DNA of 64,000 nucleotides from a virus. Location: UHGV virus genome UHGV-0033085. One strand, 5' to 3'. Of this stretch, positions 30,467 through 43,851 are shown one piece after another. The notes below the pieces were generated by a model. That model saw only the letters and a program-made list of their open reading frames with translations. It did not search any database and was not told the DNA's origin. Position 1 is the stretch's first letter. Every line of letters starts with the position of its first letter. Made by a program: the position numbers and the translations under genes.

Positions 30467-30547
30467 TAAGTAAGTACACACCTACAACAAAAGGGTGAAA
30501 TGTGATATAAATCCGCCATCCCGATTTGACTTTTCATGGAGGAAAAC

Positions 30548-30871
30548 ATGTCGAACGAGATGGCGGGCGTTACAACAGAGCAAGTTGAGCGTATTGCCGC
30601 GATCGTTGCTCGGGAGGTTGTTGGCAAATTAGGTAAAGAGCTACGTGAAGAAATTGGCCAGGAGGTCAACGACCAGCTCAAAACCTACTTTGGCGATATG
30701 ACGCCTTCGCAACACAGCATTCAGCACTCCAACCTGGACAAACTACTTAATCGGCTAGACGCCATCTCCAGCGGGTTCTTTGGCGGCATTATCTCAAAGA
30801 TAACGTCGTTCCTGATTACCGCGCTGCTGCTGGGTCTGGCCGCTTATGGCGTGAAGAATGGACTGCAATAA
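30548..30871 (+). CDS. holin-like membrane protein (putative)
   Basis: ATG 30548 after GGAGGA; single C-terminal TM segment; first gene of lysis cassette. Confidence 0.4.
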   Translation: MSNEMAGVTTEQVERIAAIVAREVVGKLGKELREEIGQEVNDQLKTYFGDMTPSQHSIQHSNLDKLLNRLDAISSGFFGGIISKITSFLITALLLGLAAYGVKNGLQ

Positions 30872-30884
30872 CAGGAGATCAAGG

Positions 30885-31577
30885 ATGAAAACTCCGAGAG
30901 GCATTCGTAATAACAACCCTGGCAACCTCGACAAAGGTTCGCCGTGGCAGGGGCTAATCGACAACCCTGCCGAACCGCGCTTTTGCACGTTTAAAGACCC
31001 TGTTTGGGGGATTCGTGCGCTGGCGGTGACTCTAATTACCTACCACGATAAACGTCGCGCAAAAGACGGCACAAGTATCGATACCATTCGTGAAGTTATT
31101 GAACGCTGGGCACCGCCGAATGAAAACAATACTGACGCCTACATTAATGAGGTGTCTAAAGCCGTTGGTGTAACCGCAGACATGATCATCGATCTGCATG
31201 ATTACGACATCCTTCGACCTTTGGTTGAGGCAATCATTCGCCACGAGAATGGCCGAGGCCCGCTAAAAACGCTGAACACCTGGTATGCGGCAGAAGTTAT
31301 TGAGGAAGGTCTGCGTCGAGCTGGCGTTGTTAAGCCGGTGAAAACCGTGAAGGCTGTTCCTGTAACTAAAGAAACCGCAGGCGCAACTGTTACAGCAGGT
31401 ATTGGTCTGGCGCAGCTGGCCGATGTTATGCCGCAGGTTTCCGCTGCTATGGATAAAGCACAAGGTCATATCTCTAGCGGGGATACAGTACGCATCATCT
31501 TCGGTATTGCCACTATTGTTGTGGCAGGATTCATTGCCTGGTCGCAGGTAAGAAAACACCAGAAAGGGATGGTCTAA
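30885..31577 (+). CDS. endolysin candidate (positional) with C-terminal hydrophobic segment
   Basis: Lies between holin-like gene and spanin pair; no catalytic motif recognised. Confidence 0.35.
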   Translation: MKTPRGIRNNNPGNLDKGSPWQGLIDNPAEPRFCTFKDPVWGIRALAVTLITYHDKRRAKDGTSIDTIREVIERWAPPNENNTDAYINEVSKAVGVTADMIIDLHDYDILRPLVEAIIRHENGRGPLKTLNTWYAAEVIEEGLRRAGVVKPVKTVKAVPVTKETAGATVTAGIGLAQLADVMPQVSAAMDKAQGHISSGDTVRIIFGIATIVVAGFIAWSQVRKHQKGMV

Positions 31578-31578
31578 T

Positions 31579-31830
31579 ATGCTAGGCAGCCTGATGACAA
31601 AGCTAAAAGTTGCTTTGATTACGCTGGCTGCCGTTCTTTTCGTTCTTGTCGGCGCTTACACGATGGGCGGGAATGCGGCGCGACGAGCAATGGAAGAGAA
31701 GGCAAAACAGGAAGACAGAAAACGACTTCAAAGCACAGTGGAAGTGGTGAATGAGACGAGCAATAAAATACGTCAGAAAGATGCTTCTGCCGTTCATCGT
31801 GAGTTGTATGATAAGTGGGTGCGTCATTAA
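31579..31830 (+). CDS. i-spanin (Rz-like)
   Basis: N-terminal TM segment then charged helical region; o-spanin ORF embedded in its 3' end. Confidence 0.5.
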   Translation: MLGSLMTKLKVALITLAAVLFVLVGAYTMGGNAARRAMEEKAKQEDRKRLQSTVEVVNETSNKIRQKDASAVHRELYDKWVRH

Positions 31831-31966
31831 ACCACAAACAGCCAGCGTGTTGTTCTGCGATGGGGCTGAGCCTATCTATATCAGCAATAATGATGTAATG
31901 ACTGAAGAAACCGAACGCCAAATCCTTTTTCACAATACGATGGGAGAGAGGGTTTGTGGTTGGTGA
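31751..31966 (+). CDS. o-spanin (Rz1-like lipoprotein)
   Basis: Starts inside i-spanin in a different frame; lipobox-like ISGC after hydrophobic signal. Confidence 0.5.
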   Translation: MRRAIKYVRKMLLPFIVSCMISGCVIKPQTASVLFCDGAEPIYISNNDVMTEETERQILFHNTMGERVCGW

Positions 31967-31998
31967 TGTCGAAGTTCCCCTCAAATGAGGGGAACACA

Positions 31999-32520
31999 TT
32001 ATTCTTCGAACAATTTTTCGATAGATTTTGTAGGATAGAACAAAGAACGCTCGTTGTTACCAACCAGCTGGATAAAGTCTAAACTTTTATAAAACGCCTT
32101 GGCTTTGTCATTTAACGCCTCAACGAAAAGTCCATGAATGCCTACAGCAAGAGATGCATTGTACACAACGCGCATTGCATGTGTTACAAGCATTGAGCCA
32201 AATCCTTGACCTTGAAGGGACTTGTCCAAAGCCAGCCTACCCAAAGTAACACTTGGAACATTCCGATAAGGTACCTTCTTTTGCTGGCTTCTTGAAGGTA
32301 AGGACTCCTTTTCAAAGCAGCTACCTGACAAAGTGTAATACCCTAACACTTTTGGTCTGCCTTCTTTCGTGCAGAGCACATAAGCGCGAAGAATTTTTCC
32401 CTCATGCTGCCTTTTTAAGTGGTTGGTTAAAAAGGCATTTAGTGATTCTTCACCGCAATCAAAACCATTCAAATCATAATCTTTCTCTCCAGAGAAAATT
32501 TCTATCTTTATATTATCCAC
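31999..32520 (-). CDS. GNAT-family acetyltransferase toxin (TacT/AtaT-like)
   Basis: GNAT motif LQGQGFGSMLV; GTG start 8 nt after antitoxin stop. Confidence 0.7.
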   Translation of the reverse strand: MDNIKIEIFSGEKDYDLNGFDCGEESLNAFLTNHLKRQHEGKILRAYVLCTKEGRPKVLGYYTLSGSCFEKESLPSRSQQKKVPYRNVPSVTLGRLALDKSLQGQGFGSMLVTHAMRVVYNASLAVGIHGLFVEALNDKAKAFYKSLDFIQLVGNNERSLFYPTKSIEKLFEE

Positions 32521-32527
32521 GAGTAAA

Positions 32528-32797
32528 CTACTCCATGCTTTTCAGACGATCAGCAGCTCGTTTCAGCTTGTCGTTCGGTGCCGGAGGATTGCTTATAGCG
32601 TCCATAACCAGATTCCAGGATTCTTCATTCAGAACTAGTCTACGGTGTTGCTCTATAACTTTCACGGCACGTTCAGATGCACTGCTAACCATAAACTGAG
32701 TAATGCTCTGGTTAGACATTGCGGCAGCTTCCTCGATGATGCTTTTATCGTCATCGGTTAATCTCAAATCGATGCGCTGCTTTTTTAGTGCTGACAT
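32528..32797 (-). CDS. DUF1778/RHH-type antitoxin (TacA/AtaR-like)
   Basis: Start MSALKKQRIDLRLTDDDK with AGGAGG 6 nt upstream; listed ORF has 13-aa spurious N-extension. Confidence 0.65.
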   Translation of the reverse strand: MSALKKQRIDLRLTDDDKSIIEEAAAMSNQSITQFMVSSASERAVKVIEQHRRLVLNEESWNLVMDAISNPPAPNDKLKRAADRLKSME

Positions 32798-33115
32798 GTA
32801 TTCCTCCTGATGGCCGTGATGTAGGAAGGCCATCAATCTCCTCTGTTCAAACTGAGTTTTCGACTCAAAAATTACTTTAAAAGGCTATAGCCCATTACGT
32901 GTGCATTATCAAATTGTGTACGGCATATCACCGTACTTGTAATATAGAGGTCATTGTTACTTTTTTCAACAGACAAATACAAGCTATGTTTGCCAATTGT
33001 TAATCACAACCTACCATTTAACCTTTACACCGCAGCCGTAGGCATTTAGGCTATATCACATATAAGAAAACAAATTGTTTCAGACGATAATTATATACGC
33101 AAAGGGAACTCTCCA

Positions 33116-33784
33116 ATGACCAAGATCTTTGTGGTTGGCGGCACAAAGGGCGGGCCTGGCAAATCCACCGTTGCCCAGCAAATTGCCGTTTGCCTGAAAG
33201 TCAAAAAGAAGAAGAAGGTTTATATCACTGATATAGATATTCAGCGCACGACAACGAGCTGGTGTGAAGACCGTCGACAGAACGAATACCTTGAGCTGAT
33301 TCCTTTTGCATACGTTCAGGATGACATCATTAAGCACCTAAAATCGCTTCAGGGTAGAGCTGAGTTTGTAGTGGTAGATGCTGGTGGCTTCGACTCCGAA
33401 ATTCAGCGACAAGCGATGCTGATGGCCGACGTTATCATTATCCCGCTTCGTCCTAAGCGTCGTGATTTGAAATCTCTGCGTGACATCGATCCTATTATCG
33501 ACAATGTTCGCAATGTAAACGATAAAGTGAAGGTCCGCGCGGTCATGAACCAGTGCCCGGCTTTGCCATCACAAGTGTCTCGCATTCTGGCGGCTAAAGA
33601 GATTGTTGAGACGTTTGGAATCGAGTCTGCGCCAGTCAATCTATATAACCGCAACGTCTATGATGATGCGGAAGAGTCTGGTCGTTCTATCTTTGAAATG
33701 ACCGGTAGCGAGCGCGACAAAAAGGCGGAAGCCGAGTTTGAAGAATTTGTAGATTATCTGTTGAGTCTGGAGGAAGAAGAATAA
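33116..33784 (+). CDS. parA: ParA-type partition ATPase
   Basis: Deviant Walker A GGTKGGPGKST; TAATG coupling to downstream gene. Confidence 0.8.
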   Translation: MTKIFVVGGTKGGPGKSTVAQQIAVCLKVKKKKKVYITDIDIQRTTTSWCEDRRQNEYLELIPFAYVQDDIIKHLKSLQGRAEFVVVDAGGFDSEIQRQAMLMADVIIIPLRPKRRDLKSLRDIDPIIDNVRNVNDKVKVRAVMNQCPALPSQVSRILAAKEIVETFGIESAPVNLYNRNVYDDAEESGRSIFEMTGSERDKKAEAEFEEFVDYLLSLEEEE

Positions 33785-34143
33785 TGTCCATGAAAATGGG
33801 TGACCTAGCAAAGCGCAAAGAGCCTGATGCACCGGCTAAGAACACAACTCCTTTGCGCCAACCAGTCAGACCACAGGGACGCCCGACTCGTGGCAAAGAG
33901 AAAATTAAAAGCCGCACAATGTCACTGGAGGACGAATACTTCGAACTGCTGGAGATGATGAAGTTCATCCCTCGCTTCGAGAAGTTCACTCGTTCTGACG
34001 TGATTCGAGCAGCCATTTTCCATCTGGCAGAGAAGTCACCGCAGGAAATCGAGGACATCGTGAAATTGAATGAGGCGATCACCGCTGCCGATGTCACGAT
34101 GCGTACCGATGAAATCAAACGAGAGTTGATGAAGAAAGGTTAA
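33784..34143 (+). CDS. small partition/centromere-binding protein (ParG/ParB-like, putative)
   Basis: 119-aa ORF coupled to parA, basic N-terminus. Confidence 0.45.
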   Translation: MSMKMGDLAKRKEPDAPAKNTTPLRQPVRPQGRPTRGKEKIKSRTMSLEDEYFELLEMMKFIPRFEKFTRSDVIRAAIFHLAEKSPQEIEDIVKLNEAITAADVTMRTDEIKRELMKKG

Positions 34144-34195: not shown

Positions 34196-34963
34196 TTATG
34201 CCGCGCTAACACTATGTTCAGTCCTAACCACCCCAACCTTCACAAAAGGGCTACCGTAGCTTGGTGGCTTCTTGATTAATTTGCCTACATACAGTTTTCT
34301 AATATGCTCATCGGCTATTCTGCCAACAAATTCATAACGTTTTGTGTCGGGGCCAAGAGCTATATCCCTTGTAAAGTACTGCTGAGAACCGGCTTTGACC
34401 CAGCATTCAATCTGATAAACTTCCATTATCAGCCCACCATATGTAGCGTAGGCATATTTGAGATTCTCGTCTCTTGGAACCTTTGCCCATACGCCACGCG
34501 TAGCTTCATATAATGCCAGAGCGGACATTCCTGACTTGTAGGTGCTGTTTAGCAGGAAGGCAAGACCGGCGTGCTCAGGAGCAATTTCAGTTTCCTCTTG
34601 CAGCACTAAGTGATGGTAGGCGTCCAGTGATATTCTGCCCATCATGGAACCACTTCCTCGTACCTTATTCGTAAGCTCTCCGACCCCCATAAGGTCGATG
34701 CATGTCGCCTCAACAAGTTTGGCTGTGGTTTCATCCATACCATGACGAAGTATATCTATGCCTAATTTTTTATTAGCCAAAAGTTCTTTGATCCGCATGG
34801 ATTTGGGAGAGTCATCGGGATACTTGATGTGATCGAGACAACGAGTCGATTTGCCTTTTCCTATGTAAAACGGTCTTTTCATCTTGTCTTCTGTATCATA
34901 GAGACAGTAAACATAGTATTTAGCCTTATCCAATGATCTCGCGTATACCGATAAATCGTCCAT
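34196..34963 (-). CDS. GIY-YIG nuclease domain protein (possible freestanding homing endonuclease)
   Basis: N-terminal YYVYCLYD...KRPFYIGKGK...R...H pattern typical of GIY-YIG. Confidence 0.55.
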   Translation of the reverse strand: MDDLSVYARSLDKAKYYVYCLYDTEDKMKRPFYIGKGKSTRCLDHIKYPDDSPKSMRIKELLANKKLGIDILRHGMDETTAKLVEATCIDLMGVGELTNKVRGSGSMMGRISLDAYHHLVLQEETEIAPEHAGLAFLLNSTYKSGMSALALYEATRGVWAKVPRDENLKYAYATYGGLIMEVYQIECWVKAGSQQYFTRDIALGPDTKRYEFVGRIADEHIRKLYVGKLIKKPPSYGSPFVKVGVVRTEHSVSAA

Positions 34964-42931: not shown

Positions 42932-43006
42932 GATGGTGTAGCTCAGCGGTAGAGCAGTTGGCTGTTAACCAACTGGTCGGTGGTTCGAATCCACCCACCA
43001 TCGCCA
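42932..43006 (+). tRNA. tRNA-Asn (anticodon GTT)
   Basis: Cloverleaf by hand: acceptor GATGGTG/CACCATC, anticodon loop CTGTTAA, T-loop GGTTCGAATCC, encoded CCA. Confidence 0.8.
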
Positions 43007-43011
43007 ATTTA

Positions 43012-43098
43012 GGGGAGTTAGTCCGTAGAGGTAGCGGTGTAGACTGTAAATCTACTGTCATGGCGACTCGGGTGGTTCGACTCCATCACTCCCCACCA
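43012..43098 (+). tRNA. tRNA-Tyr (anticodon GTA), long variable arm
   Basis: Acceptor GGGGAGT/ACTCCCC, anticodon arm GTAGA-CTGTAAA-TCTAC, T-loop GGTTCGACTCC, CCA. Confidence 0.75.
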
Positions 43099-43102
43099 AA
43101 TT

Positions 43103-43178
43103 GCCGGTTTAGCTCAGTTGGTAGAGCGCCTGCCTTGTAAGCAGGATGTCAGCGGTTCGAGTCCGTTAACCGGCACCA
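43103..43178 (+). tRNA. tRNA-Thr (anticodon TGT)
   Basis: Acceptor GCCGGTT/AACCGGC, anticodon arm CCTGC-CTTGTAA-GCAGG, T-loop GGTTCGAGTCC, CCA. Confidence 0.8.
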
Positions 43179-43541
43179 ACACAACAGGTAAGTGCATTGG
43201 GCGAATCGGCGATACTGACCCACAAGCCCGTAAATCGATAGAGTCAGACCAGTGCTCTTACCGTTGTGAGGAAGTGCAGCTCTTTGAGGCAACCAGAAGA
43301 TAAGCATCTGGCTTCACAACACAACGATAAGATCATTACGGTTAATCGTCGTTCATGTGCACAATGACTGGTCGAAAGGTAGTGATCTTACCGTTGTGGT
43401 GGATTCGCAGACTGATGCGATAGCTTTCTTGGATGTTAGGGAAATGCGGCCGCAAATCTTCCCTTTCGCGAGCGGTGATCGTCCGTAGTCCTAATTGGCT
43501 GCACCGTATGCCGGAGATTCAGTACCGGCCACCACAACGGC

Positions 43542-43628
43542 CGGAGAGTAGGGAGCATGGTGCTCAAGCGGTCTTGAAAACCGTCCCATTGCGCAAGCGA
43601 TGATGGTTCGATTCCATTACTCTCCGCC
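43542..43628 (+). tRNA. tRNA-Ser (anticodon TGA), long variable arm
   Basis: Acceptor GGAGAGT/ACTCTCC, anticodon arm GCGGT-CTTGAAA-ACCGT, T-loop GGTTCGATTCC, CCA. Confidence 0.7.
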
Positions 43629-43851
43629 AGACACAGCGTTGAGCGGTTTGGCCTTTTAATCACCCAGATTAAGACTCCGCTAACATAAACCAGACCGCTC
43701 AACGCTGTGATAGACAATTACGGCAGACGTTCTTAACCATAGCTTGCTAACATCCTAGCAACACTTTTTTTCAGCGCAAAATTCAAAGGGGCTTCGGCCA
43801 CTTTTTTTGCAACTGAAAGAGTCAAGTCTACGAACTTTGTAGGAAGAAATA

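Follow-up and report, generated by a model that had tools for sequence, protein, structure and literature searches.

In the published phylogeny of the GNAT–RHH (ribbon-helix-helix) toxin–antitoxin (TA) systems of type II, AtaT, KacT, and AcaT form the basal clade A, and TacT, TacT2, TacT3, AtaT2, and GmvT belong to clade D (PMC9177977). The clade A toxins acetylate Gly-tRNA and tRNAs carrying hydrophobic residues (PMC9177977, PMC7595197), and those of clade D are nearly Gly-tRNA specific (PMC9177977). Two of the clade A systems are available as solved structures, namely AtaR-AtaT, encoded on the chromosome of Escherichia coli O157:H7 between livJ and panM (PDB 6GTS, 6AJM, and 7CHD), and KacA-KacT of Klebsiella pneumoniae (PDB 5ZGN and 5XUN). 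The toxin2:antitoxin4 hexamers of both systems bind a pseudo-palindrome that spans the transcription start, mutational data identified R8, D10, and R12 as the residues by which KacA reads its operator, and KacAT is under conditional cooperativity (PMC6698736). Here, we analyzed a related gene pair found in a 64,000 nt stretch of the virus genome UHGV-0033085, and this whole stretch is referred to as the window hereafter. The pair is probably a functional clade A GNAT–RHH TA operon, carried as a cassette beside parAB on a phage-plasmid, where its role would be post-segregational stabilisation. The locus is a real, intact, and ordinary TA pair of a family well studied in structure and biochemistry; public records already contain an annotation of it, and a paper mentions it by name.

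A preliminary description of the window, made from the sequence alone, had proposed a GNAT/DUF1778 type II pair in canonical order on the minus strand. Both open reading frames (ORFs) of that pair were recovered:

32528..32797, minus strand: antitoxin of the AtaR/KacA type, 89 aa, from ATG 32797 to TAG 32528, with an N-terminal RHH DNA-binding part and a C-terminal toxin-binding part
31999..32520, minus strand: GNAT aminoacyl-tRNA N-acetyltransferase toxin (AtaT/KacT type), 173 aa, from GTG 32520 to TAA 31999

The DUF1778/TacA1 antitoxin gene lies directly upstream of the GNAT gene on the same strand, and the proposed type and order of the pair were borne out by the Pfam, PDB-sequence, residue, and operator evidence that is given below. 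The strong AGGAGG ribosome-binding site that had been assigned to the antitoxin is present at 32808..32803, 5 nt ahead of its ATG. The spacing of the two genes had to be corrected from the 8 nt given before, as the antitoxin stop and the toxin start are separated by 7 nt (32527..32521), and the same gap and coordinates appear in the RefSeq annotation of pEC16-526_1, a plasmid of 99.9% identity.

The toxin scored over the gathering cut-offs of both Pfam Acetyltransf_1 and Acetyltransf_7, and the acetyl-CoA loop Q-x-x-G-x-G was located as QGQGFG at residues 103-108, in agreement with the 173-aa GNAT acetyltransferase carrying this motif that the preliminary description had reported. In searches against all PDB chain sequences, the toxin matched AtaT of E. 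coli O157:H7 with E = 8e-79 and 267 bits, ungapped over 172 residues at 69% identity, and KacT of Klebsiella with E = 4e-74 and 252 bits. Using the ungapped alignment, we then inspected the AtaT positions that have been tested by mutagenesis (PMC7595197). The toxin keeps G108, which serves acetyl-CoA binding, and Y144, which serves catalysis, and it also keeps L27, L136, F30, H34, R37, S76, S78, K81, K82, Y85, and R95 of AtaT. Judged from these residues, the catalytic apparatus of the toxin is intact, and most of the AtaT positions that contact the tRNA are retained. Among the NCBIfam models, no specific one was found for toxin or antitoxin, and the only matches were weak and sub-threshold ones to RimI, MobA, and RelB.

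The antitoxin, with the N-terminus MSALKKQRIDLRLTDDDK, matched Pfam TacA1 (PF08681, formerly DUF1778) with E = 5.7e-26 and 90.7 bits against a cut-off of 21. Its best match among the PDB chains was KacA (E = 7e-42, 80% identity), and AtaR was matched with E = 1e-40 and 75% identity, with 71% identity in the toxin-binding half. Like those of the toxin to AtaT and KacT, these matches extend over the full length and are not due to chance. The RHH N-terminus MSALKKQRIDLRL could be aligned residue for residue with KacA and AtaR, and the KacA DNA-contact residues R8, D10, and R12 are all kept. Because the identity to the solved complexes amounts to 69-80%, a toxin2:antitoxin4 heterohexamer would be expected for this pair as well.

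The clade of the pair was assigned by bit scores, by which each of the other solved GNAT toxins reached at most 77 bits with the toxin, compared with 267 for AtaT and 252 for KacT. The chains 5fvj, 7ak8, 7ak7, and 6g96, which we take to be TacT-type, matched the toxin with E = 6e-11 to 2e-18, compared with 8e-79 for AtaT, and the antitoxin matched the partners of these chains with E = 1e-13 to 1e-4 only. Given the matches to AtaT/KacT and KacA/AtaR, together with the published phylogeny, the pair is to be placed with AtaRT/KacAT, and by sequence comparison it is a member of clade A, the AtaT/KacT branch of the GNAT–RHH type II TA systems, and not of the TacT branch. The earlier label "TacT-TacA-like" thus holds at the superfamily level but fails at the clade level, where the AtaT/KacT matches are far stronger. 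TacA-TacT of Salmonella, a clade D system, shares the superfamily and the architecture of a DUF1778/TacA1 antitoxin gene upstream of a GNAT toxin gene, but its similarity is much weaker, and GmvA-GmvT of the Shigella plasmid pINV also shares superfamily and architecture.

Compared with AtaR-AtaT, the phage-plasmid pair has the same gene order, 69% identity in the toxin and 75% in the antitoxin, and identical GTACGG/CCGTAC operator half-sites. It differs in that its toxin starts with GTG whereas AtaT starts with ATG, that the leader from operator to start codon is 120 nt long instead of 26 nt in ataRT, and that it resides on a phage-plasmid instead of the chromosome, with a nucleotide identity of only about 65%. 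With KacA-KacT it shares the identical R8, D10, and R12 and a palindromic operator adjoining the promoter, but it represents a separate lineage, about equally far from KacT and AtaT, on another replicon and in another host genus. Among species-representative genomes, no closer relative was found above 72% amino-acid identity, and therefore no donor was identified. In RefSeq, the chromosomal copy is named AtaT/AtaR and the phage-plasmid copy bears a generic name.

The carrier of the pair is an Escherichia SSU5-like phage-plasmid. A 1.3-kb region around the pair shows 97.7-98.5% identity to two phage CMS-2020a records and to Escherichia phage Cyrano (pLF82), and many non-mobilizable IncFIB plasmids of E. 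coli, ~110 kb in size, match it at 98-99%. The GenBank record of Cyrano labels its toxin copy 'KacT' and uses an upstream ATG (window 32833) for the antitoxin, giving 101 aa. Such a longer antitoxin, starting at TTG 32836 or ATG 32833 (101-102 aa), was rejected, since a 1-nt indel in the alleles of ~90% identity puts that start out of frame. Because of this 1-nt insertion, and because 25 of 25 relatives encode an 88- or 89-aa antitoxin beginning M-[SP]-A-[LV]-KKQRIDLRL, ATG 32797, the start chosen in the preliminary description, is taken as the antitoxin start.

Upstream and downstream of the two genes, the following elements were located:

32941..32969, minus strand: candidate sigma-70 promoter, with the -35 TTGAAA at 32969..32964, a 17-nt spacer, and the -10 TATATT at 32946..32941
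32918..32936, minus strand: operator palindrome GTACGG-TGATATG-CCGTAC, 19 bp, predicted to span the transcription start
32798..32917, minus strand: 120-nt leader, with the AGGAGG at 32808..32803; an inverted-repeat scan detected a small hairpin in it, whose arms lie at 32835..32828 and 32815..32808
31974..31995, no strand assigned: G+C-rich hairpin GTTCCCCTCAAATGAGGGGAAC, located where the Rz1 and toxin genes converge, with a 9-bp stem containing six G-C pairs

The candidate promoter TTGAAA-17-TATATT agrees with the consensus at 10 of 12 positions, the best score in the region, and is proposed on this consensus match only. The putative operator GTACGGTGATATGCCGTAC (32936..32918) begins 4 nt past the -10 hexamer, and the chromosomal ataR is preceded by GTACGGTGACATACCGTAC, which has the same half-sites. 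In the 64-kb window, the pattern GTACGG-N7-CCGTAC occurs once, compared with 0.05 occurrences expected. It was further found exactly once per locus, upstream of the antitoxin, in 25 of 25 loci that encode a clade A pair in full length (the genera being Escherichia, Enterobacter, Hafnia, Leclercia, Lelliottia, Silvania, Huaxiibacter, Cedecea, Phytobacter, Rahnella, and others), and was absent from the loci without the pair. Across the 25 loci the half-sites are invariant, and the 7-nt spacer is variable and A/T-rich. The putative operator, as read from the sequence, fits the published KacAT–DNA and AtaRT–DNA complexes. Among clade A loci, the operator and the start codon are 21 to 122 nt apart, with 120 nt here, indicating that the operon exists in short-leader and long-leader versions. 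Parts of the 120-nt leader are kept between alleles; a structured regulatory RNA in it was rejected, as its fold was not better than those of shuffled sequences (z = -0.57) and the leader length varies among relatives, and the sole match in an Rfam scan of the leader was a chance microRNA (E = 0.35). At the other end of the operon, the hairpin at 31974..31995 is a likely terminator, and the segment 31998-31940 around it is 95-100% conserved among alleles.

Next, the constraint on the pair was evaluated by comparing the window with alleles about 10% diverged from it, six allele copies being examined. The codon differences were 13 synonymous and 2 non-synonymous in the antitoxin, and 41 synonymous and 12 non-synonymous in the toxin. 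All six copies are full length and keep the GTG start of the toxin, and Y144 and G108 are present in every allele; one allele carries Q105H and F107L in the cofactor loop. The promoter hexamers and operator half-sites are unchanged in the alleles of ~90% identity, whereas the adjacent 39 nt (33008-32970) are only 64% identical. These observations bear on whether the pair could be an inactive or decaying remnant that hitch-hikes on the phage-plasmid, a reading which accords with the many relatives of the replicon that do without the pair. The full-length alleles with their retained GTG, G108, and Y144, the mostly synonymous codon differences, the invariant promoter hexamers and operator half-sites, and the transcription of the operon in Cyrano (PMC9928086) all argue against decay and make it highly improbable. 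In the closer Cyrano allele, the cassette region is 97.8% identical at the nucleotide level, with the antitoxin gene and its upstream region identical and the toxin gene at 94.8%. In pEC7518-111k, too, the antitoxin and the upstream region are 100% identical to the window. When the toxin gene of the window is compared with those of Cyrano and pEC7518-111k, 27 positions differ. Of these, 26 lie in the 5' portion of 250 nt (window 32271-32520), and the differences together produce 8 amino-acid changes, including T32A, K52Q, G54E, and Q79K. This clustering indicates a recombination patch in the half of the toxin that binds tRNA.

Taken with the described clade A systems (PMC6698736, PMC7595197, PMC9177977), these elements suggest how a functional operon of this kind would work. 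The promoter at 32969..32941 would drive a bicistronic mRNA, on which the strong AGGAGG and ATG of the antitoxin, as opposed to the toxin's GTG and its weak, distant GGAG, would cause more antitoxin than toxin to be made. With acetyl-CoA as the donor, the toxin dimer would acetylate charged tRNAs at the alpha-amino group and thereby stop translation, and by analogy the most likely substrates would be Gly-tRNA and tRNAs with hydrophobic or aromatic residues. The C-terminal half of the antitoxin is predicted to wrap the toxin and to block both acetyl-CoA binding and toxin dimerisation, and the toxin2:antitoxin4 complex would bind GTACGG-N7-CCGTAC via the RHH domain and repress the operon. An excess of toxin would release this repression, as expected under conditional cooperativity. 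When the plasmid prophage is lost, proteolysis of the antitoxin would lead to killing or growth arrest, and the pair would in this way complement ParAB.

The borders of the inserted segment and its two flanks were determined as follows:

31959..33008, minus strand: whole TA cassette, 1,050 bp, inserted between Rz1 and the parA upstream region and without a counterpart in SSU5
30536..31966, plus strand: lysis cassette (holin, endolysin, Rz, and Rz1), one flank of the TA pair
33116..33784, plus strand: parA, the other flank of the TA pair

The location between the lysis cassette and parA is as proposed in the preliminary description, and parA lies 318 bp from the TA gene pair. When the window was compared by blastn with the locus of Salmonella phage SSU5, only 30467-31958 (83%) and 33009-34141 (86%) aligned, and in SSU5 the slot in between is occupied by two unrelated plus-strand genes, SSU5_031 and SSU5_032. 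Other cargo was found in the Rz1–parA slot of phage PhiR41_1 (two genes) and Klebsiella phage pJN2-26 (one gene), the slot coordinates compared being 31959-33008 in the window, 2575-4000 in L002, 2270-3445 in L005, and 2734-3291 in L006. Pfam and PADLOC searches with this alternative cargo (SSU5_031/032 and the PhiR41_1 and pJN2-26 genes) gave no matches. In every context inspected, including a 146-kb conjugative cointegrate and a 62-kb E. albertii derivative, the cassette occupies the same slot between Rz1 and parA. The TA pair is therefore a self-contained cassette, made up of terminator hairpin, toxin, antitoxin, leader, operator, and promoter, in an exchangeable cargo slot.

The coding region was found in 145 plasmid records (140 from Escherichia, 3 from Shigella, 1 from Enterobacter sp., and 1 uncultured), 131 of which are non-mobilizable. 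Among 5,426 complete E. coli genomes, 246 contain a copy that spans 80% or more of the query. Partial or full similarity to the 1.3-kb query is seen in 597 records, which come from Klebsiella, Escherichia, Enterobacter, Salmonella, and others; for those without the cassette, the rows examined matched the parA-proximal flank only. Within the SSU5 group, the cassette was found only in Escherichia/Shigella members and in one record labelled Enterobacter sp.

The Cyrano copy has a published record. Cyrano is inducible and was measured at about 5.5 copies per cell, and its re-annotation of pLF82 includes a KacT-like pair and a HicAB pair (PMC9928086). A table in the same paper gives values of 35 for the toxin and 60 for the antitoxin, which we take to be fold values relative to the background of the prophage in lysogens of LF82 (PMC9928086). 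According to a 2024 review, TADB 3.0 lists pLF82 as devoid of TA systems (PMC11205521). That entry is contradicted by the TA locus, and it reflects a database gap rather than biology.

As for the role of the pair, it resides on a low-copy extrachromosomal replicon, the ~110-kb IncFIB SSU5-like phage-plasmids, and is linked to maintenance genes there. Post-segregational stabilisation of the plasmid prophage is its most likely function by analogy, because a distance of 318 bp separates the pair from parA, because the plasmid prophage is of low copy number, and because GmvAT offers a precedent, being a tested plasmid-stabilising GNAT pair that stabilises pINV and the test vector pSTAB in a Lon-dependent manner (PMC6519299). 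SSU5-like phage-plasmids are common in clinical E. coli, and a working addiction module would help to explain their persistence. A similar arrangement exists on the phage-plasmid P1, whose type II TA pair phd-doc also acts as an addiction module on a plasmid prophage (PMC7969092), but the protein families are unrelated, and in P1-like elements phd-doc forms part of the persistent genome whereas the GNAT cassette is accessory.

An alternative function would be anti-phage defence by abortive infection or against superinfection, in which shut-off of host expression by an incoming phage lets the labile antitoxin decay so that translation is halted ahead of the completion of the phage cycle, and abortive infection had indeed been suggested in the preliminary description. 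Some type II TA systems generally do act in this way, according to references cited in PMC9177977; the cassette occupies a variable cargo slot with a PD-T4-3-like gene 1.4 kb off (34196..34963), and the pair is transcribed in lysogens (PMC9928086). Against this, PADLOC-DB 2.0 contained no family that matched toxin or antitoxin at E <= 0.01, the literature searches made yielded no account of a GNAT/DUF1778 pair that defends against phages, and only 3 of 50,697 phage records carry the TA lineage. The suggestion thus found no support, and we consider defence an unlikely main function. About equally doubtful is a lysogenic-conversion (moron) function, by which growth arrest or persistence under stress would benefit the host rather than plasmid retention. 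In Salmonella, GNAT toxins do bring about non-growing states, according to work cited in PMC11205521 and PMC5959882, such an effect has been reported for TacT inside macrophages, and the Cyrano copy is listed among the morons expressed in the adherent-invasive E. coli (AIEC) strain LF82 (PMC9928086). However, that paper links no phenotype to the Cyrano copy, none of the present results points to a role in persistence or stress, and for an addiction module one would predict just such a tight linkage to parAB on a replicon of low copy number.

Several observations weigh against a stabilising TA operon. First, the toxin differs from AtaT at six residues that have a part in recognising the tRNA or the aminoacyl group (A26S, R40E, N41G, R71K, K77R, and K79Q), and its substrate range may therefore differ from that of AtaT. 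Second, many SSU5-like phage-plasmids lack the cassette, so that it is not needed for their maintenance. Third, the plasmid stabilisation by GmvAT was significant only at 21 C (PMC6519299), and a stabilising effect at 37 C is thus not guaranteed. Finally, chromosomal ataRT, at about 65% nucleotide identity, is present in about 1,600 of 5,426 complete E. coli genomes (about 30%) and could blunt the killing if the antitoxins cross-neutralise.

The last point raises cross-talk between the phage-plasmid pair and chromosomal ataRT, which is the one biological point of some interest here. Because the operator half-sites and DNA-contact residues are identical, each antitoxin could repress the other operon, and because the antitoxins are 75% identical, and 71% in the toxin-binding half, chromosomal AtaR might neutralise the phage-plasmid toxin. 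If this were true, AtaR would serve as an anti-addiction module and so determine from which hosts the phage-plasmid can be lost; we regard such cross-talk as conceivable but rather improbable. Of 299 genomes in which a copy is plasmid-borne, at most 71 contained a second one, compared with 1,555 of the remaining 5,127 (odds ratio 0.72, p = 0.016, uncorrected for phylogeny), and these counts are rough, the 299 including other plasmid-borne GNAT pairs. They suggest that co-residence occurs and is perhaps slightly depleted, which can serve as a lead only. Beyond this, the analysis matters little outside annotation, for which the label is now AtaRT/KacAT clade A and the antitoxin start, the cassette borders, and the operator are fixed.

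Further observations were made elsewhere in the window. Four tRNA genes, Asn-GTT, Tyr-GTA, Thr-TGT, and Ser-TGA, lie at 42932-43629 on the plus strand, parts of this cluster being common to P1-, P7-, D6-, and N4-like phages. Tyr- and Asn-tRNA are among the in vivo substrates of AtaT (PMC7595197). A link between the tRNA cluster and the toxin substrates was rejected, as a phage-wide search with the toxin found no homologue in the P1-, P7-, D6-, and N4-like phages that share the cluster. Regarding P1 itself, the Doc toxin is a Fic kinase acting on EF-Tu.

On the parA side of the cassette, a 119-aa ORF at 33784-34143 (plus strand) follows directly after parA. It has no Pfam family and matched only phrog_5111 (unknown function). 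The Cyrano record labels its homologue 'RelE/ParE putative toxin', a label for which we found no support, and by position the ORF is more likely a ParA partner (ParB-like or centromere-binding). Just past parAB, a 255-aa protein encoded at 34196-34963 (minus strand) matched PADLOC PD-T4-3 (E = 1.3e-23) and the Pfam LEM-3-like GIY-YIG family and is a candidate anti-phage nuclease; Cyrano and pEC7518-111k carry other genes at this position, which looks like a second variable cargo slot. Lastly, the 62-kb plasmid p3RM15115 of E. albertii (L030) keeps the TA pair, parAB, and the helicase-side genes, with other genes replacing holin, endolysin, and tail fibre, and this shortened derivative may illustrate how a phage-plasmid turns into a plain plasmid by decay.

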